NCBI GenBank assembly: GCA_028534125.1
Contig: CM052816.1
Coordinates: 31,436,001 to 31,500,000 of the forward strand
Direction: 5' to 3'
DNA length: 64,000 bases
Source of the DNA: Lama glama
Taxonomy: Eukaryota
Shown here: piece after piece, positions 7,585 through 33,923 of the stretch
How positions within the stretch are numbered: position 1 is the stretch's first letter
Layout: each line of letters starts with the position of its first letter
Translations under genes and position numbers: made by a program
Notes under the pieces: model-generated
Database searches by the model: none
Seen by the model: the letters and a program-made list of their open reading frames with translations, nothing else
What the model was told of the DNA's origin: nothing

Positions 7585-7821
7585 ATGGAGTCTGCCTGTG
7601 TTTCAATTCACGAAGCTCTGAAATCTGTCATCGACTATCAGACTCATTTCCGTTTGAGAGAAGCTCAAGGCCGAAGCCGAGCGGAGGATCTAAATACAAG
7701 AGTGGCCTATTGGTCAGTAGGAGAAGCCATCATTCTTCTGGTGGTTAGCATAGGGCAGGTATTTCTTCTGAAAAGCTTTTTCTCAGATAAAAGAACCACA
7801 ACAACTCGTGTTGGATCATAA
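7585..7821 (+). CDS. TMED7: TMED7 last coding exon (coiled coil, TM helix, cytosolic FF-containing tail)
   Basis: tttcctttcag acceptor ending 7584; [78 protein letters not shown] then TAA; in phase with exon 2. Confidence 0.97.
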
Positions 7822-10615
7822 CTACGTTTTGAGAATTGATGCACCATTGCCGCTGTAATATTGCTGTCCTCTAATTAATTTTAGGTACCGAAGGACTTAA
7901 TATTGGCAACATTTTTAAAACCTTACTCATACACTTGTTGGGGTGGATGTACAATGCATATCCCCAAGCTGTGGAAAGGACACCTTTTTTATTTGTAAAG
8001 GTAGAAACACTTTGGAACTTACTTTGGGCTCTTCATAAATATTCAACCTAATGATCTACTCTTTCCTTGGTTGTTTATATCTACTCTTCGCACACTAAAC
8101 TTTGGTATTTTGATTCCTTTTAGCCATTTAAAAGTACTTTTCTTGTAGGTAGTGGATATTTTAAAAACCTTTGATTTAATGTCTACCTGTGTTGTGGAGG
8201 AAGAAAATTGCCTTTTAGTTGTTTATAGCAAATAAAGTTTTGTTGTTAAGAAAACGAATTATGATTAACTGTAGCCCAAGCCCTATTCTGCACTGTTTAA
8301 TTTTGTGGGGAAAAAAATTGCCATAGAAATGTTAGTTAATATTGATATAATTTTAAATTGATCCATCATGGTTTAATTTATTTCTTTTGCTTAGAAAGTG
8401 TCATTTTTGTTGTTTGGGTTTATTCTATGATCTATAACCAGATATGTTACTTTTTTCATAAAGATACTCTTACCACATAGAATGTAGTATGTTTCAGTAA
8501 CATAATAGAGCTTATATAGGCCTTAAAAATCAGACTGTTGTAACAGGTAAAAATAAACGGAGAATAATTTAAGACACTAAGTGGGGGACAAGTGAAATGA
8601 GAAAACTTTTACTGAGTTATTGGCACATAACACATTTTTAGTGCTTTTACAAAAAAAAAGGTGATCTGTTTCGTTTTAAACATTTGGATTGGCTAGTTCT
8701 TGCTCTTATGTGGCTTTACCATCTTTGAGTTTTTCACATCTTAAATTGACAGTTGTAATATAGTACTGTAAAAGTGCCATACATTTTATCCTGATGGGTG
8801 TGATGCACTGAGAAGTTAGTTTCTTTGGTTTCTTCTTTTTTTATTTTTTCTTTTTTTGTTTTTTTTTTTGTCTTGCACATGTAATTTGTACAATCTCTGG
8901 TTAGCAGACCTAAGGTGATTTAAAGAATTAGAGTGTTGTGTGTGTGTTTCTTATTTGATAATCTTCATTGATTGTACTGCATTTAGTGAGTATTAAATAG
9001 TGCATTTTCTGTACACCGTAGGGTTTAGACTATATTTGTATTCTATAACTTGTATAGATTGAGCTGATTGAAGTAAGATTTTATTCTAGAATAGAATTCC
9101 ATATATTCTAGAATAGAATACAAGATGATACAAAATTATATGTGTTTAAAGCTTTTATGCTGTTAAAAAAAAAATGCAACGCTTTTTGCCATGCTTCTCT
9201 CCCCCACCTAAAAGTGATGAGTGCTGGGCAAGACTCATGTTGTTAGGACTTTGATATGTGGTACCATGGAATACTGATTGGATAGCAGTTCTAGTTGCTT
9301 AGCATCACTGACTAGAAGTTAGCTCTTACTTCCAAGCTATCTTAAAATGCATATATAAGAGCAAAATGAATTCAGGTAGTCCTGCTTACTAATTTCAGGT
9401 GCTACAGCGTAGCAAGGGATGAACATATTTTCAACCCTTTAATTCTAAAGTTTTTGAAGACCAAATAGCTACTCCTTCAAAAATATTTGTCACTGGATTA
9501 AGAACTGAAGTTTAAGATTTTGCAGATTTATCTATTGGGGTTCTTGTATAGGAGTTGTCCTGCAGTTTTGTAAGTGTCCCTCTGTGTTTAGATTTGCAAA
9601 TCTTAAACGCTAATGTTAGAGTGATTGATAAGCCTGGGTGTATGTTAAATGTCCTTTACTGGTTGCCTTTATGCTCTGTTGTGTTCAGATAGTTACACCG
9701 TAATTAAGTGAAGTCAGGTATCATCAGTGTGCCGAGTTTGGCATAGATAATGCAGTTATTTAATCTGTGCCTATCAAAACTTCATGATGTTAGACTATTA
9801 CCACAAATAAGTTGTGGTGAAACTATTGAGATGTATTAAAAGTTTTGAAATCACCACTGTTACCTGTTATAGAAAATAATACCGGCTTAGTTTAGTCTGT
9901 TTGTAGCTGGTTAAAGTTTGATGGCTGTCTATACTAAACTAGATATGTATATAAAAGTTAGAAAATACATATCTATCCAGACATGAATATTAAGTAAGAA
10001 CTTTATTTTCTTCCTTCTACCATATAGTTTGTAGCTCATCTCTTTTCTTTAAGCCTTTCATAACTTGTTGCAACAGTTTGAAATTTCCCAAGTATTTATG
10101 TTTGGACGTATGGCTCAGAATACATATTTAAACATCATTAACTGTATATATTTTTAAAGTAGAACAGATAATGGAAAGGGACTTGATATACAAGTTTGTA
10201 CTAAAATTTCAACTGTGTGAAGATACATTTTAAGATATTACTTTGCTAATAATCTAAACATTCTTTTTTTATTAAACAAATAGTTTGGGGTTCACAACTT
10301 TCATCCTGGCTTGATGATAATCAACTTTGAAAACAGTGAACTGAAAAGCAGTTTTATTCTTTGAAAGATTTCATTTAAATCTCTGTACTATCCACTTTTG
10401 CTTCAGTTTGTAAATGTGTAACGTTTATGGTTAAATATGACATAGCAGACCCTATGACTATTGTTTTCAGAAATTAAACAAATTGGTATATAAATAATTC
10501 AAAGGGGCTTTTCATTTACTTTTGAAAAGAAAAAGAAATTTCTCTAAACATGTTGGTTCTGCAGGATTGCACCAATCAATTCTTGTAGAATAAAAAAATC
10601 TTTCAACGAACTGAC
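7822..10615 (+). other. TMED7: TMED7 3'UTR (end approximate)
   Basis: AT-rich stretch with no recognisable interspersed repeats after the stop; candidate poly(A) signals AATAAA 8231, 8552, 10589 and ATTAAA 10271, 10473; repeats resume near 11000. Confidence 0.6.
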
Positions 10616-11004
10616 CTCACTTGTTTCTGTCAGGATTTAAATTTTTTTAAAGCTCCTTATCGACTTGCAGCTGGGAGTACAGTTTTGTAGCAAAAGAGTG
10701 ATAATTTATTTGATATTTCGTTGAAACATCTTAGGGACTGACCAAGAAAGTTAAAGAACAGAAGTAACAACCTCTAAACCACCTCACTTCTAACCTTCTT
10801 TTTGGATTTCATACTGAAAGTTTGGGTGAATGTGAGTTAAGCCTTCAGTTCCCTAAAAAGCTCTGAATTTTTAGGTAAATGAACCTTAGATTGTATAATG
10901 CCAAGTTTTCTCAGTTTTTCCCCCTTTATAAGATGTTATTCGGGGCATTCTGGTTCCTATACACAACCCTACAAAAGCAGCAAAGAAATAACAGTAATAT
11001 AGGT

Positions 11005-11360
11005 TAACATTTATTGAATGCTTTCCTCGTGCTAGGTGCTGTGCCTAGTATTTTATTTGTATTGTCACGTTTCAGCTTTGCAGTAATCCTATGAACTAAG
11101 GATATATATTCTTAAGATCTTTATTGTGGTTATGGTTCCTGTGCAGTAAACTACACATATTTTAGATCTACAGTTTGATGAGTTTTGATAGATGTATATG
11201 AACTAAGGATATTATTCCCATCTTACAGATGAGAAAACGGAGGTGTAGAGAGGTTGTTAAGAATCCTGCCTATATCACAATTAGTAATTAGCAAAGTGTG
11301 AACATGAACCATGCCAGTCTGGCTCCAGATCCCTCTTTCTCAACCACTATGCAATACTAC
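11005..11360. mobile_element. MIR interrupted by a 91-bp L1 3'-end fragment with a 16-bp TSD
   Basis: MIR core cccatcttacagatgagaaaacggaggt; TATGAACTAAGGATAT at 11090-11105 and 11197-11212 flanks a minus-strand L1 terminus. Confidence 0.8.
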
Positions 11361-12479
11361 CTTACAAACATTAATTAAGGATAGGTCTCTGAAGGGTTAG
11401 CAATCTTGATTTCAGTATAGCTCAATAGCTGTTCAGTGTTTGGTTTTGGAATCAGCCAAGTTCAGATCATGGTAGTGTGACCTCCCACAAATGATTTTAT
11501 TAACTCTGTACATTTCTGCTTCACTTATTACTAAGGTAATACCTACTATAATGAGAATATAATGAGATGTTTATAAACACTTAGGGTTAGTGCCTATCAT
11601 ATATAAGCCCTTAATAAATAATAGCTATATTTTTTATCATCAGCCCAGTTTTAGTCTCTTGATCTTTCTTTAGTTCCTCAAGTTCTTACTGTAGCCTCTA
11701 TATGGCTCTTAAATGATATGTAGCACGAATATGAAAGTCTATCATGTACATAATAGCCTGCCAGAAGTTTCAAAAATTAATAAGATAATCTGACCTCCAG
11801 GAACATAGTAGTTGTAGGATGGCTATAAATGCAACTAATGTTAAGTAAGTAATGAAGCAGAATGGACTTGAAGTTTCCAAGACCGAGTTCTAGAGGAGGA
11901 AAGACGTATGTAGATCAAAAGACTTACCCGTCAAGGAGTTTTCTTTGTCATCTCCTGGGTGGGGAGGGGTGCATTTTGTCTAGTTAGGCCAGCGGTTGAG
12001 TGGATTAATCTGATTCAGGGATGTGGACGTGAATTTTTTGTTACAGATCAAAAACCATTCTTTAACTGTTACTAGTAAAGGTGCTGTTTGATCTGCTGAA
12101 TAACTTCTCTATCTCAGTTGCTTCCAAATTGTGGAGGAAAATATGGGGATGTTATCCACCAAGTATGCTGTTTTTCAGTCTGCTTTCTCCATTTTATCCA
12201 CAAGGTAGCATCATTAGGAATGATTACAATCCTTGCTGAAGTCAACATTTATTAGAAGTAACACTGGTCTGGCTTAATTTGTTTTTAGTGCTGGTGATTA
12301 CTAGTGACTACCACTACCTTAAAAAGAAAAGGCAACACGAGAATTTGAGAAGTAATGGTTCAAAGAGTAAAATCTACCCGTAAGCCACTATCCATTTTGA
12401 TGTATTTCAGGTATTTTTTTATAGATAGAGATGTATATTTTTAAAGAATTGGTATTGTCTATAACAAATTTTTAAACTT

Positions 12480-15400
12480 TTAGAAATTGTGAAATTTGTC
12501 ATAATATAGAAGAGGGTATTAAACATGTACAATTTAAAAAGAAAATTATAAAGCACATACTCATAATAATTAATGCTCAGGTTAAGAAATGCAATATTGC
12601 CAGCACCATAAAAAGATCCTATGTATCTTTTCCAGATCACATTCCTGAATTTCCTCCCTAGAGATAACTAATGTTTTTCTTGTAATGAAAATATTGTTTT
12701 CTTTTTCTTTTTACCAGTTATGTATGCTAGTTCTTCTCAAACTACTTTTGAAAAAATTTCCAAGTTATCACAAACTCACAATACAAACGTATAAATACAA
12801 AATCATGCTTGAATGCTTTGGTAATACTGAATTGCTACCAGCCTTTCTAAATGCTTACTTTCTCTGCATGCTTCCTCTCACTTTAAGTGCTTCTCTCTTC
12901 ATCAGCCAAAAACAGTTCAGTATGGTCACTGGACCACACTCTGAATGGTACTGATGTCTCCTTTCCTGAAAAATGTCTAAAAAAATCAGGCAAAAGTAAA
13001 CTTTAATAAATAAAGTTTAATGGAGTATTAAATTCTGTTTAATAAATTAGATATTACATGTCTTCTTTCGTGACTTTGTTTTGCTACATCATCCGTGTTG
13101 ATGCATCTGGCTGTAATTTTCATTACCGTGTGGTAGTCCATCATATAAATACATCAGAGTTATGTGTCTGCTCTACTGTGATGGAGTTTTGCTGTTACAA
13201 ACAAAGCCACTATGAATATTTCTGTATATTATGTTCTGTTACACATGTGTATCATCCCTTGAGAATACATCTAGGAGTGGAATTGTTGGCTTACAGAGTA
13301 TGTGTGTTTTCATCTTTACTAGGTGCCACCTAGCTTTCCTAAAGCAATTGTCTGAATCAGTGCTTTCACCAGTAGCAATAGAAAGTTCCATATTTGATGT
13401 TGTGAGACTTTAAAACTTTTGAAAATCTCCTGGGTTTATAATGTTGTAAAGGCAGCACTTAAGAATTTCAGAAATAATGGTTCAGAGAATAAAATCCACC
13501 TGTAATTCCATTATCCATTTTGATATATCTCAGTTATTTTCATAGATATATGTGTATATTTTTTAAAGAAATGGGTATTATACCTCATTGTTGCTTAATT
13601 TGAATTTCTATGAAGTTAATTGTTTTTTCTCACAGGTTTAATTACCACTTGGATTTCCTCTTTGTGAAGTCCCTGTTCAGATGTTTTTCCCATTTTAAGA
13701 CATTGGATGTTTTGGTTAACAGGATTCCTTTACATATTCAGAAGACTGATCCTTTGGTTTTAAGTGTTTGGATATCTTCTCACAGTTTCTGTTTGTTTTC
13801 TGCCCCTAGTGAAGTATATCAGTCTTTTCCCATATTGTTGGCATTTTTATGTCTTATTTGAGAAATACCTCTCTATCCTGAGATCATAAATATCTTCTCC
13901 TGTACCATGTTCAAAAATATGTATAATTTTATTTTCTACTTGAATTGAGTTCTATGTATGGGATAAGGTAGGTAACCAGGTTTTTTGTTTTTTGTTTTTT
14001 TTTCTTGAACACATTTCTTTCTCTTTTGATTTGCCATGCCAATTCTGTGATCTATTAAATGCCCATATTTACCTGAGTCTTATTTCTGTTCTATTCCATT
14101 GATCAGTTTGTTTATACACCAGTAACAAACTATCTTAATTACTAAAGCTTTAAAAATTATTGATATTTAGTAAAACAGATGTTTATAATTTGTTCTTCAA
14201 GATTTTGTCTGCCATCTGTCCCTTGCATTTTATATAAAGTTTAGATTTAGTACAAGTTTCAACAAGACAAAATAAATCTGCTAGGATTTTGACTGGAGTA
14301 GTATTTAATGTGTCAAGACTTTCTTCTTTTATAATATTGCAATTTCCATTGAATGAACCTATCTTTTTCATTGCTAGGGCCTTCCTTAGATCTTTTGATA
14401 AAGTTTTATAATTTTATTCATAGAAGTATTCCATGTGTTTTTGTTATGTTAATCTTGTTTATATTTTTTGATGCTATTTAATTTTGTTGTTGTTGCTGGT
14501 GCATGGAAATACAACTTTTAAATTGATTTTTCTATTCAGCATCTTTGCTAAATTCTCTTGTCAATTCTCGTAATTTATCTGTAGATTCTTTGGACTTTTT
14601 GTGTGTACAGTTGTCTCATCTGCAAGTCAGGATACTTTTGTCTTTTTGTTCCTCACACCTTTTCTTTGTTTTTCTTGTCTAATTACAATTGACAGGGACC
14701 TCCAGTACAATGTTGAATAGAAGTCATAATAGGCATTCTTGTTTTGTTCTTGTTCTCTAGAAATGCTTTCAAGGTATCCTGTAAACAGTTTATGATTTTT
14801 TAATTAAATTTAGAAATTTCCCTTCTATTCTTAGTTTGCCAAGAGGTTTTTTTTTTAATAATCATAAGTGATGTCAGAGTTTATCAAAAGCTTTTTCTGT
14901 ATTTATTGAGAAAAATAATTGTTTTGCCATCTTTATTCTCTTAATGTGGTCAGTTATGAGGACTGATCTTCTGTTGTTAAACCAACCTTTTTCTGATTTG
15001 TTTGTTTTTAATGGCTAGATTTGGTTTGTTTCAAGATCTTTGCTCAATATCAAGATTATACATCCTTATAAAATGAGTTGGAGAGAGGCTTTCTTTCCCT
15101 AGTTTCAGGACGAGCTTCTACAAGATTTACATCTTCCTTAAATCTTTTATTACAAATCTTAGGTGAAGTATGTTTGGTTGGGATCTGGTGTGGTCTTTGT
15201 GAGATACTGATTCATTTTTTTTATTATTAATGAGAGTATTTCCTCTTATGGAATATTTCCGAGAATCTGTCCATGTCATCTACATTTTCAAATTTATTAG
15301 CACAGTGTTATTCCAATCCGTTTTTTTAATAATATGTCAGATTTGTACTGTCATCCTCTTCATTCCTGATACTGTTATTTATAGTTACAAATTTATACTA

Positions 15401-15480
15401 TTTATTATATAAGATATTTATATCTTCTTTTTTACTTGTCCGGTCTTAGCAGAGACTCATCACTTATACTGTTTTTTTCA
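12480..15480 (-). mobile_element. Degraded old L1 (3'UTR and ORF2 remnants)
   Basis: T-rich + strand with L1 antisense motifs (acctccagtacaatgttgaatagaag, ttcccttctattcttagtttg, ctcattgttgcttaatttgaatttc). Confidence 0.75.
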
Positions 15481-15494
15481 GAAAGTCAGTATTT

Positions 15495-16290
15495 TTTCCT
15501 TCCAGTTTTACTGAGATATAATTGACATATAGCACTGTGTAAGTTTAAGGTGTACAGTAGAACATTTGACTTACGTACATCATGAAGTGATTACTACAGT
15601 AATTTTAGTCATCATATAGATAATAAAAGAAAAACTTTTATCTATTTTTTCCTTGTGATGAGAACTCGAGTTCTTACAACAGTCTTAACAACTTTCATAT
15701 ATAACATATAGCAGTGTACATATAGCAGTGTCAGTTCTCCTAATCATTTTGTATATTACATTCCTAGTACTTATACAACTGAAAATTTGTACCTTTTGAC
15801 TACGTTCATCTAGGTCCCCCTTCCTCACCCCTACCTCTGGTAACTATAAATCTGATCTTTTTTTCTATGCGGTTGTTTGGTTGGTTGGTTTTTTAAGAGA
15901 ATTGACCTACGGCACTATGCTAGTTCCTGGTGTACAGCATAGTGATTCAGTATTTCCATACATTACAAAATGGTCACTATGGTAAGTCTTGATACCATCT
16001 GTCACCACACAGACTATATTCTTCATGTTGTACGTTTCATCCCTATGACATTTATTTTGTACAGAAGTTTGTACCTCCTAGTTTCCCTCACATATTTCAC
16101 TCATCCCCCACCTCTTTCCCCTCTGGCAACCACCTGTTTGTTCCCTGGATCTATGACTTTGTTTCTGTTTTGTTATGTATGTTCATTTGTTTTTTAGATT
16201 CCACATATAAGTGAAATCATATAGTATTTTCTTTCTCTTACTTATTTCACTTAGCATAATACCCTCTAGGTATTTCTATATTCTTGTAAT
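15495..16290 (-). mobile_element. L1 3'UTR of a younger subfamily
   Basis: ttttactgagatataattgacatatagcactgtgtaagtttaaggtgtacag ... agattccacatataagtgaaatcat. Confidence 0.75.
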
Positions 16291-16359
16291 GGATATTTAG
16301 CTCAGATCTGTTGTAACGTATATTTAAAACTACAGATTTCTCTCTTACTGTTCTTTAGA

Positions 16360-16950
16360 TCAATGTTAATTTTCTATGCTATGTAACAAATTACCACAAA
16401 TGTACCAGTTTAAAACGTATATATTATCTCACGATATCTACAGGTTAAGAGTCTTGGCACAGCTTAGCTGGGTCCTGTGTTCAGGGTCTCACAGGGCTGC
16501 AATCAAGTAGTCACTTGGACTGCCTTCTTACCTGGAACTTGGGGGGCCTCTTCCAAACTCATCAGGTTGTTAGCAAAATTCAGCTGCTTGCAGCTGTAGA
16601 ACTGAGGCCTTTAGCCACTTGAGGCTGCTCCTCTCCATAAGCGCTTCACATCATGACTGGTTCTTCAAGGCCAGCAGGAGAAAATAAGTTGCTTTGATTC
16701 TCTTCTTTCAGGGAAGGCTTGACAGGATTCACCCGATTATATCAGAGCTTCTTCCCACCCCTGGAATAATCTCCCTTTCAATAAACTCAGAGTCAACTGA
16801 ATAAGGACCTTAATAGCATCTTAAAAATCTTTTCACCTTTACCGTATTCTGTTGATAAGAAGTCAATTACAGGTTCTGCCTACACAAACGTATGGGGATG
16901 GGGATAGTGAGGTATTTTGGGGCCATCTTAGAATTCTGCCTACCAGGAAC
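16360..16950 (-). mobile_element. MLT1 (MaLR) LTR
   Basis: atgtaacaaattaccacaaa...ggcacagcttagctgggtcc...ggccatcttagaattctgcctacca. Confidence 0.7.
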
Positions 16951-17422
16951 CCCATTCTACAAGTCTTGATATCTATTTTAGTTACTCATCAATTTCAAAG
17001 AATTTTTTGATTTCATTACTACTTCTGATCTGACCCATAGATATTATTTGGAACTATAATTCTTAATTTCCAAACACATGTATTGAAGTTATCTTTTATT
17101 ATTGATTTCTAACATAATTGCTTTGTGATCAGATAATATATTTTCTATATAACTTAAATTCTTTGGAATTTTTTGACAATTGCTTTATGACTCTGTTTAC
17201 CTCCCTCCCTTTATATGTTGTCATATATTTTGTATCTAAAAGTCATTACTGTTGCTTTATATAGCCAGTATTCATTTCCATTTACCCATGTATTTGCCAC
17301 CTTTTTGCTCTCTGTTCCTTGCTGTGTCTTTGAGCTTCCATAATAATTTTCCTTCTGCCTGAAGAGTACATTTAGAATTTTTGGCTGCAAATTCACTTTG
17401 CCCTTTTTTTTTTTAATGTCTT

Positions 17423-17788
17423 TGTTACTGGGAAAAGGAAAGTAAGAATTACCTTAGTTTTTAGTCACCAGAAAAAAAGATTCTTGATGAGTGACAAAAA
17501 AGTGTGATAAGCAAAATTTTTATTAGTGAAATAAAAAAAATAGTGAAAGATAGTACACTCCCAAGAATTGGGAGCGGGCCAATCCAAGAGAGAAAAAATG
17601 GCGCCGTTCCTTTGTTTTTTCCTGTTTTTATATCCTGGTTTCATGATTGATTAATTGACTGATTGATTGACAACTCAGGTTCCCTGCATTCTGGTTGATT
17701 GACAGCTCAGGTTCCTTGTGTTCTGGATTGTTTCTTTCCCCTTCCTCTCCCCCTGCCCAGTGCTCATTTCTGCCTAAACTACCTAACA
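17423..17788 (-). mobile_element. Solo ERV1-type LTR, 366 bp
   Basis: TGTTA...TAACA terminal inverted repeat, 4-bp TSD TCTT (17419-17422, 17789-17792), minus-strand TATAAA (17627-17632) and AATAAA (17519-17524). Confidence 0.85.
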
Positions 17789-17864
17789 TCTTTATTTTAG
17801 CTTTATTCCTGCAGGAGATTTTTGCTAGGCATAGAATTCTCTTGAAGATACAGTTTTATGGTTT

Positions 17865-18040
17865 CTTTTTTTAAATTGAAGTACAGTCAGTTACAATGTG
17901 TTAATCTCTGGTGTACAGCACGATGTCCTGGTCATATATATACACATACATATATTTGTTTTCATATTCTTTTTCATTAAAGGCTACTACAAGATACTGA
18001 ATATAGATCCTTGTGCTATACAGAAGATATTTGTTTTTTA
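17865..18040 (-). mobile_element. Short L1 3' end of a family recurring in this window
   Basis: Similar to copies at ~37030, ~41790 (minus) and ~40165 (plus): attgaagtacagtcagttacaatgtgttaat...ctacaagatactgaatatag. Confidence 0.75.
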
Positions 18041-19575
18041 TTTATCTCATTGTCTTCTGGCTTCCCTTTTGTTACTATGAAGAAATCAGCTATCAATCTT
18101 TTGCTTCATTGAAACTAATCAGTCTTTATTCCTTTCTCTGGCTGCTTTCAAGTTTTTCCCTTTGTATTTGATTTTTGGCAGTTTAATTATGCTGTGTTAA
18201 GTGAGAATTTCATTGTATTTTCCTGCTTGGGTTTTATTAGGCATCTTGGATGAGTTGACATGTCAGCTCTGGGAAGTTCTCAACTATAATCTCTTTAAAT
18301 ATTGCCTCTGTCCAGTATTCTCTCTCCTTGCCTTCTGGGGCTCCGAGTAAACATTTGTTAGAACTTCTTGGTTTTCTTTCTTACATCTCTTCATGTTTCT
18401 TCTATATGTTCTGTATCTATTTCCTCTGATCATCCTAGATAGTTTCTTCTTAAATAGCTTGTAAAGCACAATCCGCTTTTCAGCTGTTTTTAATTTGCCG
18501 TAAGACTCATTCATTGAGTTCATAATTTGTTTTTATAGTTTTTAATTATGTTTTTCTGTTAGATTCTTTTTCTTATCTGCTCTATTGCTTTTTATGGTAT
18601 CCAGTTCCTTGCTGCAGTTTTAAGTGAGAATTTTATTTCCATGGAGTATCCTTTGTGTCTGATAATCCCAGTGTCTACTGTCTGCCCTGGTTCTGTTTCT
18701 ACTGTCTTTATTTCATGTTGCTTCTAGTTAATGTTGTCTTGGTTATTCTTGTATCTCAGTATCATTGCTTGTTAACTTGAAAACCCTGAAAAAAATTTGG
18801 AAATAATTTAAGATCTGGGATGATTTTCTCTTCCTTAAGAGGTTTTGTTCTTTCTGCCATGTACCTGAGGTCATTAGCAGTCTCAAACTTTGGCTTTAGA
18901 TTCTTGTCCCTGTCCAGATGGCCCACTGGACTGCAGTTTGTACCCTCACTCCAGGATAGAGCCCGTGGGCTTCAGTCTAGAGCAAGGGTTGTTTCTTCAC
19001 TTTTGGTGGATACCAAACACAACCCTTTCCAACTCTTGTTGCTGAAAATACAACTCTACTTCTCAACTAATTGCTCTAGGTTGGCAATCCACCCCAAGGG
19101 TAACAGTAATCCTACTATTCCCTGAACTCTAAAGCTCTCCCTGAATTTGACCAGGTAAATGCTATCTTATGTCTTCAAGATGTTTATTGTGTTTCCTCAT
19201 GTTTCATCTTAAGTGGGAGATCAAATATTTTATGATTTCTGTTGTGGTTAATTTATTGACCAATGGCTTATTTCAAAATGTGTCCTTTAATTTCCAAACA
19301 AATAGGGACTTTTCTAGTTTATCTCTGTTTTTGTTTTTCAGATTAGTGGTTAGTGAACATATTTGTATTATTTCAACCTTTTTAATTTGTTTTGATTTTG
19401 CCTTGTTGAGACTTGCTCTATGGTCAAAAATACTCTGGTTTTGTCAGTGTTCCACATGTATGTGAAGAAATGTGTATTCTGAAATTATATTGAGTGCCAT
19501 AATCTATACATGTCAGTGAGGCCAAGTTCATTAATCGTGTTTAAGTCATTTATATCCTTACTGATTGATGTGTGA
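18040..19575 (-). mobile_element. Old L1 fragments with ORF1- and endonuclease-like remnants
   Basis: Minus-strand translation KDINDLNTINELGLTDMYRLWH resembles L1 ORF2 endonuclease; ORF 18284-18523 resembles degraded ORF1. Confidence 0.6.
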
Positions 19576-20969: not shown

Positions 20970-21480
20970 GACATATAAATATATAATATATATGAATAAA
21001 AAAATAAAGGCAGCAGCGCCGGGAGAGTTTCCCGCGCGAATTCCCCTCCTCCGCCCTCCTGGGCCCGCTCCTCCCCGCCGCCCAGAAACTTCCAGGCTCG
21101 CTAACCCCGGACCCTCCCCGGTGGGGCGGCCCCGCGCCCGGCAGGCAGGCCGGCCTGCAAGGGTTAAGTGGCGGCGCGTCTCCGAGGGGAGGAGACTCGG
21201 CGGTCCCCAGACTTCCGCGCGTCCCGGCTCGAGCGGAGCCGGGCAGAGGGCGTGGGGACGCGAAGTGCGGCGCCGCGGGCCCGCAGCCGAGGGGAAGTCG
21301 CGCCACGCTCGGCGGGCGAGGAGGACGAGCCGCGGTGGGGCTGCCGCGCCGCCCGCCCGCTTCTCCGGCAAGTAGCGGGCGCCGGGGCTGGGGGGCTGGG
21401 GTGCGGGGCCGGGGCGCGCGCGGGGCGCTCCCGGCCGGCGGGGGCCTGGGGGGCGGGGGGCGGGGCGCAGCCCTCCTTTC
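20970..21480 (+). promoter_or_regulatory. TICAM2: CpG island / TICAM2 promoter
   Basis: Only CpG-dense region in the window; GC boxes (GGGGCGG ~21123, GGGCGTGGGG ~21248), kB-like sites 21021-21046, ETS core (ACTTCC) ~21088 and ~21211; lies upstream of the TICAM2 coding exon. Confidence 0.85.
21170..21367 (+). other. TICAM2: Probable non-coding TICAM2 exon 1 (start approximate), ending at a GC-type donor
   Basis: CCG|GCAAGT at 21365-21373 followed by G-runs; no ATG seen in the segment; human TICAM2 is recalled as a two-exon gene. Confidence 0.6.
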
Positions 21481-22179
21481 GGCCCTGCCTCTCTCTGAAG
21501 GAGAACCCACGCAACTCCCTGCCTCTCTCATAAGTTTCATGTTGACTAGAAAACCTACTTTTCAAAGAAACCTCGGAACTCTAAGCAAAGAGCCCAGCAT
21601 CTCAAACGGCTTAAAGGTTCTTTGGGAGCCTCTTCCAGGCCCCCCTGAATCAGTGCTGAAAGTTTTGGTTTTGGTTTTCTCTTTGAGATCTTGTCCAAAA
21701 GCTAATTTGGATAGAAGTAACTGGTGCTGGCAGCTGTGAGCTCGTTTTCAGTTGTGTGTTAGTTGGGACCTCCAGTTTTTTATGGCAGTAGAGTTTTTTT
21801 TTCTTCAAAAATATGATACATTTTAAATGATGCGTTGGTTATAAATGGAGTTAAGCAACTGCATTTTATATCTCATTGAAATCTGAGAGTAGATGAACAG
21901 GTATAGAATAATGAATGCCTTTCCTGCTGAAGCGAAGTCCAGCTGTATGGAACCTGAAATCTAAACCGCGTTTATACTGTTGCATCTTTTGCACCTCTTT
22001 TGTTGAGTCCTTTGCTACTTGTGGTATTTTAAAATTTATTCATTTAAACACTGATAAATTTCTTGTCTTTAAATACCACCCCCCTTGACCAAACATCTCC
22101 TTCTATGACCCACCCATTTCTTTGCTCCCTTTATTTAAAGAAAAGAAAGAGAGAAAGAAAAAAAGTCCTTTGAAAGACT

Positions 22180-23180: not shown

Positions 23181-25139
23181 GGCTCTGATCTTGCTGCTGT
23201 TCTCTTTGGCTGCAGTGGACCTCTGCTAGACCACCCCAGGCTGGACACTGTCACTTTCCTCACTTCCCTCCCTGTTAAGATGCTGATCAGGGGTGACTGC
23301 CATCGTCCTGCTAATATCCTTTTGTTACTGATAACTCTAGGTCGGTGGCTGCCAGCTACTGAACATTATTCTCTAATACTCCATGAAGCTCATGGCACCT
23401 TTGAATCATTGTTGGTTACTAGGGCTTTCTAATATTAAAAAGGCACCAGCATCTTACTCTTGAGTCTCATTTTGATAAGATATACAGTTTGCCCTTACAC
23501 TCTGTTTTTATAAAATGTTCTTCCTGGTTTGGAGATTTTTCCTTCTAAGGCCAGTTCTCATTTTTAAATACAGAAAATGAAAGGAAAATACTCAGTTTAC
23601 TGGAAAGAATATGCAATAATTTTTTTTTCAATTCCTTTGCTTCAGTGGGTAGCAGTAGTTTCTGATCTGGAACCTTGTTGAATGATACCAGTAACGTTTT
23701 AATGGGAAGAAGAATGAAGGAGCTTGTTCAGAGAATATTATACAAGTTTTTAACGTGTGTAGTGACTTAGCCAGTATCAGAATATTAAGATTTCATAGCA
23801 AAATTCAGTTCTCATTTAAAAATATGTGGGAATGGAAATGAAAAACAGTGTTTTCATCTTCATAAAAAGCTGTTAGAGGATAAAAGACTGTTTAATTTAT
23901 AATATTTATTTTTCATTTTAACTGCAAGGAACTAGTTCTGTGATGTTATCAGTAGCATACGTACTACCTTCCTCTCTTTTAGAAGAACAGAAACATTCGT
24001 TTTTCTCCTTTTCAAATTGGGATTTCAGATACATGAATAAATATGATAGAAGATGAAACAAAATTTTAAAGTAAAGAGATTTGGAATATGGAAGAATGGA
24101 AGAGTAGGATGGTTAAAGGGAGGCCATGAGTGAAGTCAGGATCCAGACTCCTGCACAAGCTTCTGTGTGTTGGTTAGAGAGCATTCATCCACTCGGAGCT
24201 CCCCAGCAGCTGAGAGAAGAGACAGGTGCCACAGGTCAAAAAGCAGGGGCCCAGTGGACGATCAGTTTGTGTATTTTTGTTTTTCTACCTGACAGAAGCT
24301 TTTTTTTTTTAAGTAATGAAACATTTACTTGCTCAAGGACCTGTTTTAGGTACTATGGGGATGAATACTCTGCCCTCTAGTGCTTGTAATTAAGTAAAAT
24401 ATTGGGGTACCCTTGTTTGGTTTAGTTAGAAAACCTAGACTATTGGAAAATTTGCATCTAGATTTAAAAAAAAACAAGAGCTGGAATAGAGTTAAACCTG
24501 GAAGTGAGCTAAATCCCCCCGGAATGTGCAGGTATGGCACATCGGGAACACTGTCTAGGGCATCAAGTTCACTTGATCTTTATTTAAAAATACAGAACCT
24601 GGAAAACAACTTATTTACTAAAAAATCTTTTCTCCCCCTAGATTGCATTATCATTGTAGAAAAAGAGGATATAGATATGGATGGATGTACATTCACGTGT
24701 CTGCCATCCACAGATAACCACCATTACCTTTTTGCTATACTTCTTTCCATCCTATTTTCTCTATAGTTTGTTTTCACCAAGTTGAGATCCTACTGTAAGT
24801 GCTCTTTTGTAGTCTGCTTTTTAACTTTTTCTTATGGAAGTATTTTCTCATGTCATTAAAATAATTCATAGTATTTGTAGACATTTTAATGATTTAATAG
24901 GATTCAATCATATGAATAATAGGACATAGTTTATGTTGCCATCCCCCCCTACTTTTTGAACATTTTGATTGCTTACCTCCAGTGGAATGTTGGCCAGCCT
25001 GTGATACAATGTACAAGTTCTCTAATAATAAGAAAATGTAGTCAGGTAACTCATACTTCAAAATTGCAATAAAATGTTTCCAAAGATCCTGTGACAGGAG
25101 AAAGCTGAGCAAGTTTGAGAAGCTGGAAAAGAAAAAAAA

Positions 25140-25620
25140 AAAAAGGCCCACATGCAGGGAACTGGAGGTGTAAAGGGGAGAAAAGCATGAGATGAGGTTG
25201 GAGCTGAAGGAGCCATATCATGCAGGGCATCCTTTGCTATGTTGAGAGCTCATGATTCTAAGAGCATTTGGAAGCTATTGCAGGGTTGTAAATGGAGTAA
25301 TCTAATCAGATGTATGTGCTTAGAAAGATCATTGTGGCTACTAAGTAGAGAATGGATTAGCCTGACCAAGAGTGGGTGTATGAGACAATTAGGAAGCAGC
25401 ATAGAGACCAGGAGAGAGATGTTGATCTAGAGCGAAAGCATGATGGGAAGGAAAGTGGAACATTTTGAGATGTGTTTTGCAGGTTGACTAGACAGGACTT
25501 CATGACAGCTTGGAAGTAAAAGTGTAGGAGTGGAGAGGGAGCGTGCCAGAGATGCCTGAGGTTTCTGTTTATTGTAACTGGGCAAATGACAGTGCCATTT
25601 ACCATGGTGGAGAAGTCTGG
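25140..25620. mobile_element. L2 LINE fragment, opposite orientation to the 22.2-kb copy
   Basis: Purine-rich L2 motifs (ttagaaagatcattgtggct, gtgccatttacc). Confidence 0.65.
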
Positions 25621-26589
25621 GGAAATGGGGTGGAAGCTACCTCCCAGGTGAGCAAGGAAGACAAGTTAGAAGTGCTATGTGATACATATTATAAGAGATA
25701 TGAACAGGATATTATGGGTGTCCGGAGCAGGAGTACTTAACATGGAGATAAAAGGAGATGTTTTCTGCCAAATATGATCAAGCTGTATCTTGAAATGACA
25801 GTACCATAACTATATCTACATAGTATTTTAAAAATGTAACATAATTGCTCATTAAAAAATCCAGTAAGATAAATACTTGGATTGGTTAGTCCCTATTCTA
25901 ATTGAGTCAAAAATTTATGTAATAGGGATGCTAAAGAGCTATCTCTTTAAACCTTAAAAACTGTGTTAGTCTTATTTGTAAAATTGCCTCATTCATTCAT
26001 TCATTCATTCAAAAGGTATTGTTGAATGCTGACTATGTGCAGGACTTTCAAGATACAGCGACAAGAAGGCAGATTTGGTGGTATTCTGGTAGAGTTTACA
26101 GTCTAATGGGAGAGATGAGAAATAAGCAGATATTCAAACATCTAATTAATCATAGTGTGATTATTGCCATAAAGGGAAGATCCAGGGTGATAGACTCCTC
26201 TAGATCCCATAACCCTAACCTTTCTAATGCAAGCTCTGGTACCTAAAGTGAAAATTATAGGCACTGGTTTACTTGGACTGTGAATAAATATCAATGGGTA
26301 ATAGTTGATAATTAATTATTTTACTTATACTGGGCCTTTGCCATCCTTATGAATTCTGTGCAACCCCGCAAAGAAAATAAGTAAATAACAGCTGATTCTC
26401 AGTAATGTTATTTTAGCAAAAGATCAGCTGGATTCAAATTCTGCCCATCCTATTCTTGAACATATTGATGACCCTCATTGGGATTTTAAAATACTTCCGA
26501 TGTGAAGAAGTCAGAAAGAAAAGCCTACATGCTCCCTGTCTGACTGGCATAGGTCTGTTACGTCCTGGCAATACATAAGGTGGACGTTA

Positions 26590-26730
26590 CAGGCCTTACA
26601 ACTCCTCCTGGAACTACCCAGCTCTGCCGCTGGAGCATGAAATTAGCTATAGACAACACATAAATGAACAGGCATGGCTGCCTTCTGGTAAAACTTCACT
26701 TACGAAGAACAGGTGGTAGGCCATGCTTTG
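26590..26730. mobile_element. MER58-like hAT DNA transposon fragment
   Basis: actacccagctctgccgctggagcatgaaa...gacaacacataaatgaacaggcatggctg...aaaacttcacttacgaagaacaggtggtaggcc. Confidence 0.65.
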
Positions 26731-28304
26731 CTGCTGCCCTCTGCTGTCGTTCCCTGTCCTGTATCTGGATGTTGTATCAATCTCGGTTGAACTGCTGAGA
26801 ATCTCCTCTAGCTAGTCTAAGCAGAAAGGTGTGCATTAGAGGATGCACAGTGTCATTGGGCAAGGTGAAGAGCTAGACTCTGGGTTGAGTTTCTGGGAGC
26901 TTTTGCCACAGCCATGAAACCTCCTGCCAGATTAGCAAGCTGCCAGCTCCCGAATCAACTGTGCTAGAGTCTTAACCAGCGAAGTAATTGCCTCATCCCC
27001 TGCCTCCCTTCATATTCAACTCAGACATGAAAGTACATCTGATTGGCAGAACTTAAATTACATCTGGAACTCTGGCTTAAAGAAAGTGTAGCAAATACAG
27101 CTTTTCGTACTTGGGGTCCAGGAAGTACAGGAAGGTTCACAAAAGGAAAGTGGAATCAGTTTTGGATGAGCAGATCTGCAGTATCTGCTACAGAACACCC
27201 ATCCATACCTTCCCTTTTTTCCATCCCTAGACTTCCAGACAACAATAGCAATAACAATTCTTAACAGAGCAATAACAACAGTATGCTGTCTCCCAGTACA
27301 GTGCAACCATCCCTCGTAAAAACCAAAGTGCACTCACCTTCTCCCAAGAAGGTAAAACCCGAAGTCCTATAGGTCACAACATCAGCTGCAGGATCCATCA
27401 CAGACCTGTCACCCTCAGGAGTTAGGTAGCCTCTCCTCTCCCCAGGAAAGGGGAAATGGGAGCGAGACCGAGCTGCCCAATGACCAAAAGGAAAGCAGCT
27501 CAGCTGTAAGAAGCTCCCACCATACTTTTCATACTCTTTATCTTAACTAGCAAACTCCTTCCATTTCTAAGCACTCTTGAGTTTCTCTTCTCTTAACGAA
27601 ATCCTTGCCTGACCTACATTCCTTTGTAGCTATTGGCTTCTCCTTTCCTTCTTTGCTGAGCTTTCCCCTCTCCCCATGCCCTCAATTCCTCTAGCCTCTT
27701 GAGCACCCTGCATTCTGGTTTGGGGGCTCCCACCGTTCCCCTCCCAACCTTACTGATGCAAGCCCCACCCCCCACCCCCCGTAGGTGTCCCTCCTGAATG
27801 ATTTTGTAGCACCTGTTTCCCTGAATGGAGCACCAGGGCAATGAGTCCTGATCGTCTACTTATCCTGGCTCCACATCCCTAAAACCCAGCAGGTCTTGGT
27901 GCAGAGTAAGATTTCAACAACACTTATACATGAATAACAACTTTTATTTATTAACTGAATTAACTGAAGAGACCATTCATTTTATACGTATTTGCCACAA
28001 GATGGTGCTATTCAGATAGGAGAGACAACTCAAAGGCCCTCTCGGGCTGAAGGAACCAAGTACTATATGCCTGAATGTTTGTTAAGTGTGTTAAATTTCA
28101 AAGGCAGTGATTTAAACACATAAGCTTTTCTGTGATAAACACATGAGCAGGTTGAAAATTGTTTATGAGTATGTGTTTTATTATCAAATTACTGCTGATC
28201 ACTATTTTACTACGGTTTGGGAGCCTCTCTTCCCAAGAGGTCAAAATGTTTTAAAAATGCAAATAATAACTCTTAATTTGAGTGCAATAAACTTTTGAGT
28301 AGGG

Positions 28305-28845
28305 CTGTATTTGGATTTTTCAGACAAATGGGAGAAATATAAATAAATAGACACATACATGCACACACACACACACACACACACACAGGTTCATTTTAAG
28401 GAATTGGCTCATGTGATTGGTGGGGCTGGCAGATCCCAGATCTGCAGGAAACTCAGAGTTGACTTTGCAGGTTTGAGTTGGAAGACTGGAAACTCAGATG
28501 GAATTTCTCTGTTGCCATCCAAGGCAGAGTTCCTTCTTTGGGAACCTCAGTATTGCTCTTAAGGCCTTCATTTATTGGGTAAGTTCCACGGACTATGGAA
28601 GATAATCTTCTTTACTCCAAGTCTACTGCTTTATTTATTTATTTATTTTAAATGGAAATATAGTTGATTTACAGTATTATATTAGTTTCAGGTGTACAGC
28701 ACAGTGATTCAGAATTATACAAAGTCTACGCTTTGAATGTCGATTCCATCTGAGAAATACCTTGAGAGCAACATCTGGACTGGTGTTTGACCAAACAACT
28801 AGGCACTGTAGCCCAGCCAAGCTGCCACATACAGTGAACTCTCAC
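28305..28845. mobile_element. MLT2 (ERVL) LTR carrying a small nested L1 3' end
   Basis: ttttaaggaattggctcatgtgatt...tttgaccaaacaactaggcactgtagcccagccaag; insert ~28633-28721 flanked by aagtctac(t)gcttt duplication. Confidence 0.7.
28362..28387. repeat. (CA)13 microsatellite
   Basis: Read directly; lies within an MLT2-like element. Confidence 0.95.
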
Positions 28846-29986
28846 AGAGGTCTAGGTGAGGCAAGTAAACTTAGTAGGCGAGAGAAAGTCACAGTGATGT
28901 TTCCGTTTTCAGTTAGGGACAGGGGTGAGAGGGCTGAGGGCTGTAACCACCCCGAGGAACCTCCCTGGAAATTTCTTCAGGGAGAGAGGCTGTCCCGAGA
29001 TAGGACCCACAGAAGTCTTCGGTTTAGGGCAGGAGTACACACAGGGACTGATCAGCATTGCATAGGGCTGAGGATGAATTAAACCTTGTGGACACAGTAA
29101 TTTCACCCCAACAGGCTCCATCCTGTAACATTTTTGTTTCAAAATGAGATTCAGGATTGGGGCAGTCCTTAGGATGAGGTTTTGCTTCCTCTTTTATTGA
29201 GAATAATGGAAGAGTGAAAGGGAACTTCTGCAGATGTCCAAGACCACATCCACCCACCCAGCCACCTGTGTCCACACTGTTTAGTTCTGCCTTCTCTTAT
29301 TTTTACTAAAGTAAAACTGTGTAAAGTTTTCTTTAACTTTTTGTTACATATTTAATCACAGTAATTCTGCTAGCATTTATGGAGCCATCTTCTAAGCCAT
29401 TTGATCTTTATAAAAGACCTTAAAAATAGGTACTGTAATTATCACTATTTTACATGTGATGAAATCAAAGCACAGAAATATAGGTAGAGTAACCTGTACA
29501 GTCTCGCAATTTTTTTTTATCGTAAGGCTGGAATTTACATTCAGGCAGTCTGAGTCCAGAGCTCATAGTCTTAATGAAAATGGAACTTTTAAATTTGCGT
29601 TTTGCATGCTCTGATTCTTCTTTATAGTCTTTTTTATTTCCTGTCATATTTGTGCATATTTGCCAAGTGTGCGTATATTCCCTGCTGTTCTTTTCATCTT
29701 ACTCTTGTTGAATGTGGGGGATTCTGTTGGGACCTTTTTTTGCCTAGACATAAAGTGACTACATTCTGGACTCTTCTCCTTCTCATCTTGGACCTGTTGA
29801 TCTTCCCTTCGGAACTTCAATTTAAGGACTACATTCTGGTGGGTTGTATTTTTCCACATTTCTGTTGCCCTAAGGGGATGTGATTAGCTCAGTTGGGCTG
29901 TGGTTAATAGTAATTGGTAGTTTTAGTCTTAGATTTTTTTTCTGGGGCAAGGGGTAGATGTGGGCATGTCATTCTGTCAAGTTAAA

Positions 29987-30055
29987 AGTAAAACAAAACA
30001 AAAAACAAAAAACAAACAAACAAAATATATATATATATTTATTTATTTATTTATC
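29987..30055. repeat. Compound simple repeat (AAAC)n-(AT)n-(ATTT)n
   Basis: Read directly. Confidence 0.85.
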
Positions 30056-30059
30056 AATC

Positions 30060-30600
30060 TTCAGGGAGCAATTTGGCCAGAGCTGTCACTAGCACATGCA
30101 TTTGTCCTCTGATACAGAAACCCCATTTGGGGGATTTATTCTACAGATGAACTTGCACACAGAAGAAATGACCTTTGTACCAAGTTGTTCACTACAGCAT
30201 TGTTCATAATAGTAGTAGACTGGAAACAACTCTCATGTTCAAGAACTGGGGATGATTCTGATGTATTCACGTGCTGGAAATGTCGTAAGTAAGAGCAGGG
30301 AAGCTCTCTGTATGCTGGTGCAGAAGGCTCTGAGGTTGTATTATTGGTGGAAAAAGCAATCTCTTTATCTGTGTATCTACTGCTGTTTGGTGGTGTGTAT
30401 GTATATATACAATGATACTTTTTTGACAAAGGAAAGAAAAAAGAACATACATGTTCATTAAGAAACAGTGGAAGGATATTGAAGAAACTAATAAAAGTGG
30501 TCACCAGTAGGAGGCCATTGGAATAACAGGATGGATGGAGAAGACAAGGAAGGGAGTGAGACCTTTCAATGTAAATATTTTCAAAGCTTGCCTTTTCTAA
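30060..30600 (+). mobile_element. Old L1 (L1ME-type) 3' fragment
   Basis: gggagcaatttggc...gttcactacagcattgttcataatag...ctggaaacaac. Confidence 0.6.
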
Positions 30601-32554
30601 AATAAATAAATAAATAAAAAACGTACACACACACGTTTTTATTCCTGTGACCAGTGATCCCATGTGCCTCTCCCCAGCGGCCACATTCTCCTTCCAACTA
30701 CTTAGCTGAGGGGAAGGAGGTGAAACTTTGAAAATGTTTTAACCCTGGTGCTGACTGTCCCTAATGGATAAGGAGGACTTTAAAGAGGCTTCGTAGGATT
30801 CTCTTTGCCAGGCTCTCCCCTCCCCTATTTCTTGCAGCGTCCTGCCTTTGGTCTGTTGTAGTGACACCTCTCTGTTGATGGAGTTAAATAGCTCAAGGTG
30901 AGCCTGGTGTGGTCCTCTCCCTTCCTTCTGTCCTTGATGAATACGGACCCTTTCCCCATCTCTGAGTCACGTGGTGGTGGGAAAGGCGGATCTCCAGCAC
31001 AGCGCATCCCACATCTTTTTCCCTTGGCTGTCTCCTTGCTCTCCCCCTCCAAGTTAGAAGGTTATGGTGAAGTTTTTCGAACACTGTCACCGAGTTTCTC
31101 CTCCCTGGTCTGCTTGGGGGTGGGGGGGGCAGGAGCGTTCGGAAGCTGGAATAGCATGTCATAGATTTCTGGACTATTGTTCTGTTTTGCTGACCAGTGT
31201 TTGAGGAAAATAAGACCTAAAAGTGTAATTATTTTTTATTGTTGTTTATTTTTATTTATTTCAAAGTATTTTGTTACCCTGGAAATTTTTGACACTTTTT
31301 ATGAAAAACTGTTAAACCTTCAGATGCACTCATCTGCAGTGGCTGGTGATTAGGATAAAGGGGTTGAGTTGGTTTAACAAACCTATCTCAATGAATAAAT
31401 GAAGATCATTTTAATTGACACTTTAAATGATTTCCCCGAATGGTTTCACAATTTTTTTTTTTATGCAGGTTAAGCCTCTTTCTGCAGCTTTGCATAGTAA
31501 AACTTCTCTTTATGCTGCAGTAACAAAATCGTCAGTTAATCCTAACCAATGAAGAGAATCTGAATTCATTTGGGTTTATTATTTGGGGTGTATGTATGTA
31601 GCATTTGAGGGTTGTCATGCCTTAGACTACCTCTGGGTGGCTGGCACAATGTGCTGTGGATCTGAACCTCAAGTACAGACAGAATAAATGAGAGGCAGTA
31701 GACACAAATTCTTAACGCTATTCAGAGACAGTAGCAAACCCTTTCGGTCTTTATATGCATTAGAAAGAAATTTTCTTTGGATTTTTCCTTATATTTTTTT
31801 CCCATAACAGTTTTTCACTATTTTTACTGAACGATTTCTTCTAAACCTGAATTATTTTGGCATGTGTAGCCATGTTACTTATGTTGTTATGAATATAATT
31901 CTAATTTCATCTTAAACTCTGGTCTTTGCCCATGAACATTAAAAAATGCTTTAGAATATAGCCTATGGGCCCATATTTGAAAATATGGAATTTATGTTTA
32001 CCTATTCCAAATTTTCTCTTTTGATAAAAGAATCCCCCTTGAAACTAACTATTTGAGGGTTATAGTAACAATATTGCCAACATTACCTGAAGATTTATTT
32101 AAATTAAATTCATACTGAGTGCCTTTCACAGCTGATCTAATTCTTCCACTCTGAATTTAGGATTTTTAAAATAAAAGAATGAGTATAGAGTATAAAGATT
32201 ATTTGTTGGTTTCACTGGAGAAAATCACAAGGCTTTGTTTCCAGCTTTCACTTCCAAACCAAGATGTTAATTTTTCCCTGGGTGAATAAATATGCTTTCT
32301 TAAGTATTACAAAGATTAGCTGAAAAAAAAGGCATTCCTTACTTTTCACAACCCTTATTACGATTTCTCCACTAGCCTCATTATAACAGTGCCTGACTCT
32401 AGGCAAACAGAAAAACTTTGACCCAATGAATCCTGGGCAACATTTCCTTTGACATTTCAGATCCTTATTCTGAGTCAGTAGAGCTACCTGTTAGCCATTG
32501 TAGGATATTTTTATTCTGTTTTGTGTTTGTGTTTGATGCCAAAATAAATTTTGT

Positions 32555-32725
32555 GTGGGGGTGGGGTGGGTATAGCTTAGTGGTAGAACACATGCTTAGC
32601 ATGCGTGAGGTCCTGGGTTCAAAAAAAAAAGAAGATTATAGCAGAAATAAATAGAAACCAAGAAAGCAGTAGGAAAGATCAATAAAACAAAGAGCTAGTC
32701 TTTGAAAAGATTAAAAAAACTGACA
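32555..32725 (+). mobile_element. Chimeric insertion: tRNA-derived SINE head + A10 + L1 ORF2 fragment, with a 14-bp TSD
   Basis: A box tagcttagtgg and B box ggttcaa; L1-like gcagaaataaatagaaaccaagaaagcagtaggaaagatcaataaaacaaagagctagtctttgaaaagatt; TSD AAAATAAATTTTGT at 32541-32554 and 32726-32739. Confidence 0.8.
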
Positions 32726-33171
32726 AAAATAAATTTTGTATTTGATATTTGAATATTCTGTTTCTTTAAGCTTTCCTTTTTCTAGTTTACACAATAATTT
32801 GGTTATGGAGAAGCTGGACTTAAACTCCATTTGAGTAGAGTGATATGGTACCTGATTTTCACTAAAATCCAAAGTAATTAATTTTAATCTGGAGGCTTAT
32901 AGTGCTAATATAACACCATTAAAGATTTCAAATGTCTCCTGTTGTATTAAACTGGACCCTCTGTTTAACTTACCCTTGACTACCTGTGGGAGCCCTTGTA
33001 AAGCTCAAAAAAGATTAGTGATTTTATTTCCCAGTCATTTGTTTGGCATTTCTTTCTTAGTGACCTTTATATTGTAACCTTTTTGAGGATTTCAGGTTGA
33101 ATGAAAGTTTCCAATTTTAATGTTTTGATCAGATTTATAATATCCTTCTGCTTTGTTATTTCTGCTTTTAG

Positions 33172-33230
33172 AATGAAAAGTAATGCTGAGAAATAAATGA
33201 AGCTTTCCTCTTCTGACTTGGATATTTATC
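33172..33230 (+). other. TICAM2: TICAM2 exon 2 5'UTR portion
   Basis: Acceptor ctttgttatttctgcttttag ending 33171, 59 nt before the start codon. Confidence 0.8.
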
Positions 33231-33923
33231 ATGGGTATCGGGAAGTCTAAAACGGATCCCTGCCCTCTTTCTCTCTCTTGGGGTAAAAGCCACAGTGTGG
33301 ATACAAGTCAAAGACATCACAAGTCAGATTCCGGGAAATCTGAAGAGCACTCCCTGCGTGATCATGTTGTGCAGAGCAGTGTAGCAGAGATGCCAGCAGA
33401 GGGACAGGAGGGAGCCGAGGCGGGGGAGGAGAGGCCTGAAGAGGAAGCAGAAGAAGAGGAGGTGTTCTTCAAATTTGTGATACTGCACGCCGAGGACGAC
33501 ACAGATGAAGCCCTCAGAGTACAGAATCTGCTGCAAAATGACTTCGGCATCAAACCTGGCATAATCTTTGCCGAGATGCCCTGTGGCAGACAGCATTTAC
33601 AGAATTTAGATGATGCCGTCAATGGGTCTGCCTGGACAATCTTACTGTTGACCGAGAACTTTTTAAGAGACACCTGGTGTAAGTTCCAGTTCTACACATC
33701 CCTCATGAACTCCGTGAACCGGCAGCACAAGTACAACTCTGTCATCCCCATGCGGCCCCTCAACAGCCCCCTGCCCCGGGAAAGGACTCCCTTTGCTCTG
33801 CGAACCATCAACGCCCTGGAGGAAGAAGGTCGTGGCTTTCCTACACAAGTGGAAAGGATTTTTCAGGAGTCTGTGTATAAGATACAACAAGCTATATGGA
33901 AAGAAACCAGAAATATGGTATGA
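33231..33923 (+). CDS. TICAM2: TICAM2/TRAM, TIR-domain adaptor of TLR4, 230 aa, single coding exon
   Basis: MGIGKS myristoylation start in strong Kozak context (atcATGg); Ser16 retained; acidic linker; TIR domain FVILHAEDDTDEA...EMPCGRQHLQNLDDAVNGSAWTILLLTENFLRDTWC; PRERTPF motif. Confidence 0.98.
   Translation: MGIGKSKTDPCPLSLSWGKSHSVDTSQRHHKSDSGKSEEHSLRDHVVQSSVAEMPAEGQEGAEAGEERPEEEAEEEEVFFKFVILHAEDDTDEALRVQNLLQNDFGIKPGIIFAEMPCGRQHLQNLDDAVNGSAWTILLLTENFLRDTWCKFQFYTSLMNSVNRQHKYNSVIPMRPLNSPLPRERTPFALRTINALEEEGRGFPTQVERIFQESVYKIQQAIWKETRNMV

Follow-up and report, generated by a model that had tools for sequence, protein, structure and literature searches.

The closest described relative of the locus considered here is human TAG, isoform 1 of the TMED7-TICAM2 read-through (NP_001157940, UniProt Q86XR7-2; Palsson-McDermott 2009, cited via PMC9755862 and PMC7904555), a protein which is reported to bind TRAM, the product of TICAM2, and to displace TRIF (PMC9755862; PMC7904555). 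TMED7-TICAM2 is also named among the read-through transcripts of adjacent genes, known as conjoined transcripts or as products of cis-splicing of adjacent genes (cis-SAGe) (PMC6862657), and a survey from 2022 reported TAG from mammals and birds, and also from a crocodilian and a lizard (PMC9440496). Read-through or TAG in human is mentioned in PMC6862657 and PMC10620864, while the excerpts of PMC10543024 and PMC3584666 hold a general remark on TRAM and a reference line, respectively. Judged by titles and the first lines of abstracts, the literature gave no evidence for a TAG junction in a non-primate, and no report was found for TICAM2 together with alpaca, or for TICAM2 together with camel and TMED7. 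Here we describe a stretch of 64,000 nucleotides (nt) of Lama glama DNA (contig CM052816.1, positions 31,436,001 to 31,500,000 of the forward strand; hereafter the window). The locus in this camelid is orthologous to human TMED7-TICAM2, and both TAG splice sites have been inherited intact. Their presence is expected for a mammal, and the llama is one more species for a known system.

In the window, TMED7 is the immediate upstream neighbour of TICAM2, both lying on the + strand. An internal 5' splice site (7710..7718) in TMED7 exon 3 ends the exon at 7712 in phase 2, 13 nt ahead of the best hydrophobic 19-mer (start 7726, mean Kyte-Doolittle (KD) value 2.22). The corresponding acceptor lies inside the TICAM2 coding sequence (CDS), where the AG at 33288..33289 forms the first two bases of the Ser20 codon, again in phase 2, and is orthologous to the acceptor of human TAG. 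It is preceded by a polypyrimidine tract (33257..33279) over TRAM codons 9-17, in which 22 of the 23 bases are pyrimidines, and a pattern match upstream of the tract marks a possible branch point (33247..33251; its A, base 33250, precedes the end of the AG by 39 nt). No other AG stands between the tract and the acceptor, the preceding one being at 33244-45. Joining 7712 to 33290 over an intron of 25,577 nt yields 335 amino acids (aa), exon 1 not included, in frame to the TICAM2 stop, with a Cys at the junction because TRAM position 20 is encoded by a Ser codon. The product consists of GOLD (PF01105) and an intact TIR_2 domain (PF13676); the transmembrane (TM) helix, Gly2 and Ser16 are missing, there is no myristoylation site, and with a best hydrophobic 19-mer of KD 0.65 no TM segment is left. 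Ser16 is what we take to be a protein kinase C site of TRAM, although a passage naming it was not found in the literature looked at. A preliminary description of the window had given the coordinates and phase of both sites, the tract and its first AG, and the Cys-joined reading frame with its losses; all of these were reproduced on recomputation, and the human junction it gave as VAYW-HSVD does read Tyr-Trp-His in NP_001157940.

Its inference that the system is retained is supported to the extent that the two sites are orthologous to the human junction, with positions and phase aligned and the frame open; retention as an expressed and working system is a further conjecture. The llama locus thus resembles human TAG in gene order, in the positions and phase of donor and acceptor, and in a GOLD plus TIR_2 content devoid of a TM helix. 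The TMED7 part is identical to the human one at 122 of 125 residues and the TIR domain with its tail at 147 of 155. Unlike human TAG, in which Arg20 gives a junction Trp, the Ser20 codon gives Cys here, and the TRAM tail is six residues shorter. Furthermore, human TAG is a known transcript with a reported inhibitory action, whereas the camelid product is a predicted one. Conjoined or cis-SAGe transcripts in general (PMC6862657) share with this arrangement the same-strand neighbours and splicing that leads from the first gene of the pair into exon 2 of the next. In this case, however, both sites lie inside coding exons and not at normal exon ends.

Eight donor-acceptor pairs were tested, and an open frame results from 7712-33290 (335 aa), from 7712-33296 (333 aa) and from 7716-33246 (351 aa, with a very weak acceptor). 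The 333-aa product would use a second in-frame AG (33294..33295, within CAG) 6 nt further downstream, the equivalent of which is used by one naked mole-rat model. The 7716 exon end belongs to a second GT donor (7714..7722, phase 0, 4/9 consensus), which in the window is not in frame with either 33290 or 33296 and stands at the position used by ruminant and hare gene models. The preliminary description had named neither this donor nor the second AG, nor the stop at the canonical acceptor described below. The 7712 donor matches the consensus at 6/9 positions, compared with 7/9 for the true donor of TMED7 exon 2. It ranks second among the 13 GT sites of the exon 3 CDS, is equalled or beaten by 12 of the 197 GT sites up to 10600, and is weakly above chance. 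A slightly stronger GT donor is found after 7758 (7756-7764) inside the TM-coding part of the same exon; it would share its frame with an AG before 33375.

The acceptor was gauged by two measures which disagree. By tract content, counted with no AG in between, the internal acceptor ranks first among the 64 AGs of the TICAM2 CDS whichever of six window lengths is used, and between 1 and 37 of 1572 intervening AGs match or beat it; the 23-nt window is the length named in the preliminary description and the most favourable of the six. By a rough position matrix, with approximate base frequencies, it scores only -2.7, a value reached by 7 of the 64 CDS AGs and 587 of the 1575 intervening AGs. On this matrix a tract at some distance from its AG loses score. 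Synonymous recoding creates an AG in 33-38% of draws and the observed acceptor matrix score in 0.13-0.41%. The pyrimidine excess of TRAM codons 9-16 over what the protein needs has a nominal p of 0.003 under uniform codon usage or 0.012 under local usage, and windows on the tract (6, 8 and 10 codons) are the most pyrimidine-biased of 363-375 in the three visible CDS pieces. A tract fully forced by the protein was rejected on the recoding and tract-content results, and the internal acceptor looks real, with selection on it in camelids a conjecture. Orthologous DNA for a codon-level test was sought in viral, prokaryote and metagenome contigs, which gave 10, 88 and 344 pattern matches, respectively, none of them confirmed.

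The internal acceptor has a competitor 118 nt upstream. The canonical-type acceptor of the TICAM2 coding exon (33150..33171, AG 33170-71), inferred from its score and position to be the one normally in use, reaches 5.3 on the matrix. Splicing from 7712 to 33172 runs into an immediate TGA. Read-through might be real and yet lead mainly to this acceptor or to cryptic exons, giving a soluble TMED7 of GOLD and coiled coil that lacks the TM helix and would act in the lumen of the endoplasmic reticulum (ER) on the export of TLR4. A Pipistrellus model ends exactly after the TMED7 donor, models from pig, colugo and sheep carry short unrelated tails behind it, and the matrix score of the canonical acceptor is equalled or exceeded by 38 of the 1575 intervening AGs. 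Truncated TMED7 has also been reported to activate TLR4 constitutively, by a truncation that may differ from the one at 7712 (PMC4186342). On the other hand, use of the internal acceptor is established in human by a curated record (NP_001157940), and by pyrimidine content its tract equals or exceeds the canonical one (22 versus 19 of 23). We consider a mainly soluble outcome quite unlikely.

Among 329 proteins examined, 49 have both the end of the TMED7 coiled coil and the core of the TIR domain, and every fused model other than the human one is a prediction. The TM helix is missing from 36 of these and retained in 13 (cats, canids, panda, hedgehog, birds and alligator). The GOLD+TIR proteins of birds, crocodilian, cat, dog and hedgehog were rejected as TAG because, with the helix still present, they have the appearance of merged gene models. 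Additional File 11 of the 2022 survey lists 25 models, none of them camelid (PMC9440496). In six the TMED7 part ends at the Cys, and in 11 the TM helix is wholly or partly present; the dating of TAG to the Mesozoic therefore relies in part on sequences without a TAG-type junction.

The 36 models lacking the helix differ at the junction. It reads Cys-His in 13 (two pikas, aardvark, two mole-rats, zebra, warthog and six bats), Trp-His in five (human, three Old World monkey models and one bat) and Trp-Ser in ten (nine ruminant models and hare); the other eight, including hyena, panda, an older yak model and two from Pogona, have other junctions. In the two Pogona (lizard) models the same donor is joined at the equivalent TRAM position, also with loss of the helix. 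The 13 Cys-His models, predicted non-primate TAG proteins of the RefSeq X2 type or of the kind surveyed in PMC9440496, have a junction identical to that of the window. The replacement of Trp by Cys, noted in the preliminary description, is thus present but is the general non-primate state and no peculiarity of the llama, and a novelty of its lineage was rejected. The nine ruminant models and the hare differ from this locus in combining a donor at +4 with a phase-0 acceptor. The same shift of 4 nt downstream is found in the chinchilla model of the 2022 survey (PMC9440496), and in all of these lineages the frame is kept. This could represent a real turnover of the junction or a preference of the alignment for keeping Trp. 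Among muroid rodents, eight proteins are devoid of two residues of the tract region (TRAM residues 13-20), and mouse TRAM has Lys at position 20, the codon of which would presumably remove the phase-2 AG.

Some predicted models connect these sites to quite different partners. In pig, colugo, sheep and flying fox, models continue from the same TMED7 donor into unrelated exons, and in the X2 model of sperm whale TICAM2 the internal acceptor is reached from a different exon, not one of TMED7. Such models are not explicable by projection of human TAG, which suggests that both sites look usable outside primates; ab initio prediction of these models is another possibility. The sperm whale model also bears on a different role for the acceptor, namely alternative splicing of TICAM2 itself. 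In that case the first TICAM2 exon would be joined to 33290, the start codon skipped, and a non-myristoylated TRAM of 177 aa made from Met54, a cytosolic dominant negative that has no GOLD domain. The first in-frame ATG past the acceptor is at 33390, and TICAM2 X2 models of Myotis begin at a downstream Met. Non-myristoylated TRAM (Gly2Ala) reportedly acts as a dominant negative (PMC7904555), and the difficulty posed by a signal peptide, discussed below, would be avoided. However, the models in question are all predicted, and those starting at the downstream Met may be partial; we regard this role as very unlikely to be the principal one.

A more serious challenge is that the sites may be mere passengers in conserved coding sequence, with no meaningful use in camelids, a working TAG being limited to primates. 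Several observations weigh in this direction and against use of the sites in the llama. When Tyr-Trp-Ser-Val is recoded synonymously, a GT arises in 62-67% of draws and an equal donor score in 16-17%; because the Trp-Ser-Val codons are invariant, the 7712 donor is largely dictated by the protein, and the AG frequency given above likewise leaves room for a passenger. On the rough matrix the 7712-33290 pair takes sixth place among 162 in-frame pairs, and the internal acceptor is much weaker than the canonical one. The p for the tract comes from one species and is at least 0.14 once corrected for about 46 non-overlapping windows, and the state of the tract may be plain inheritance from the ancestor shared with human. 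Among 55 chosen aligned mammalian proteins, TRAM residue 20 is Ser in 44, Arg in seven, Gly in two, Thr in one and Lys in one. The column does not stand out from its neighbours (K19 in 50, H21 in 36, S22 in 43 and V23 in 44), so there is no excess conservation at residue 20. In a Peromyscus model the junction residue is X, a hint that models of this kind can be projections of the human protein even in the absence of an open frame. None of the 36 fused proteins lacking the helix names Logan or ENA as its source, which does not amount to evidence that read-derived ones are absent. No camelid fused model was present among the protein matches listed, which in one search were 120 of 189 and representatives only, or in the two-member cluster of TICAM2, a weak negative. 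Finally, one review calls TAG exclusive to humans (PMC7904555) and another assigns it to humans and other primates (PMC9755862). Against the passenger explanation stand the pyrimidine content of the tract, which exceeds the need of the protein and is first in the CDS, and the models in which the donor or the acceptor is paired with exons unlike those of human TAG. On balance we find it somewhat improbable that the sites are passengers only.

Returning to the reading that we favour, in which the inherited sites are used, the chances that this species makes a minor TAG-type read-through mRNA appear to us about even. A small share of TMED7 transcripts would extend beyond the poly(A) signals of that gene, the 7712 donor inside the last TMED7 exon would be used, and splicing over the 25,577 nt would skip the first exon of TICAM2 and reach its coding exon. 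Choice of the internal AG ending at 33289 would give a protein with the signal peptide, GOLD domain and coiled coil of TMED7 followed by TRAM residues 21-230 with the TIR domain intact, whereas choice of the canonical AG would give a TMED7 that ends after the coiled coil with no TM helix. The fused chain, if located in the cytosol, would act as reported for human TAG, contacting TRAM through TIR-TIR interaction and displacing TRIF; with 147 of 155 residues of the TIR half identical to human, it could indeed act in this way. The location poses a problem of its own. TMED7 is described as a type I protein with a luminal GOLD domain (PMC4186342; PMC10946956), although a cytosolic GOLD has been reported for TMED7 (PMC7045115). 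All five fused orthologues checked have a hydrophobic N-terminal stretch, and, judging from the type I topology, a signal peptide in a chain lacking a TM helix could bring the whole product, TIR domain included, into the ER lumen, which also speaks against a cytosolic inhibitor. The TIR half has a single glycosylation sequon, at Asn131. That a TAG-type mRNA yields a working inhibitor is accordingly the more doubtful part, and we lean against it.

The window has several further features. TMED7 exon 2 (3948..4193) encodes part of the GOLD/EMP24 domain and is in phase 0 at both ends; EMP24_GP25L (PF01105) is matched on both TMED7 exons in the window, with an E-value of 1.7e-21 for exon 2, and TIR_2 (PF13676) on TICAM2. 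The 5' part of exon 3 (7585..7712), the coiled-coil region, stays in a TAG-type transcript, whereas the remainder of the TMED7 CDS (7713..7821), with the TM helix (about 7726-7782), cytosolic tail and stop (7819-7821), is lost in read-through. Motifs of TMED7 exon 1 were not found in 1-3947 in a search of the three + frames, and this exon, with the signal peptide, is upstream of the window. In the 3' untranslated region of TMED7 (8231..11618), AATAAA occurs at 8231, 8552, 10589 and 11613; read-through must cross all four. A CpG island (21000..21499, + strand, GC 0.78, observed/expected CpG 0.94) is inferred to hold the promoter and non-coding first exon of TICAM2, which read-through would skip. 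The TICAM2/TRAM CDS (33231..33923) is a single exon of 230 aa with TIR_2 at residues 82-191 (about 33474-33803). Its protein falls into a cluster of two with Camelus TICAM2, from which it differs at four positions. The stop (33921-33941 region) comes six codons earlier than in most mammals and is followed in the same frame by what is left of the old tail, as far as another stop; the early end residue is common to Camelus TICAM2 and an armadillo protein. All these features are on the + strand. On the opposite strand, a marginal tRNA match (50126-50197, 29.9 bits against a cut-off of 29) has a 75% identical inverted copy at 32558-32622, and the two are probably copies of a tRNA-derived short interspersed element. 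Dispersed repeats of 66-85% identity in both orientations (17869-18050, 37038-37572, 40189-40355 and 41790-42299) are probably fragments of long interspersed elements.

The broadest proposal compatible with these observations is that TAG-type splicing is an old and selected feature of placental mammals in which TRAM codons 9-20 double as a splice acceptor. Lineages with a phase-0 AG (ruminants, hare and chinchilla) would keep the frame through the +4 donor, murids would have lost the system, and camelids would possess a functional GOLD-TIR brake on TLR4-TRIF signalling. Taken as a whole, this is an unlikely proposal. What the DNA letters by themselves contribute is small, one species added to an existing list. 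Nevertheless, reviews treat TAG as restricted to humans or primates while databases hold many predicted non-primate models, and if the junction were proven by reads in a camelid, this brake on TLR4-TRAM-TRIF signalling would be shown to be older and open to study in livestock.

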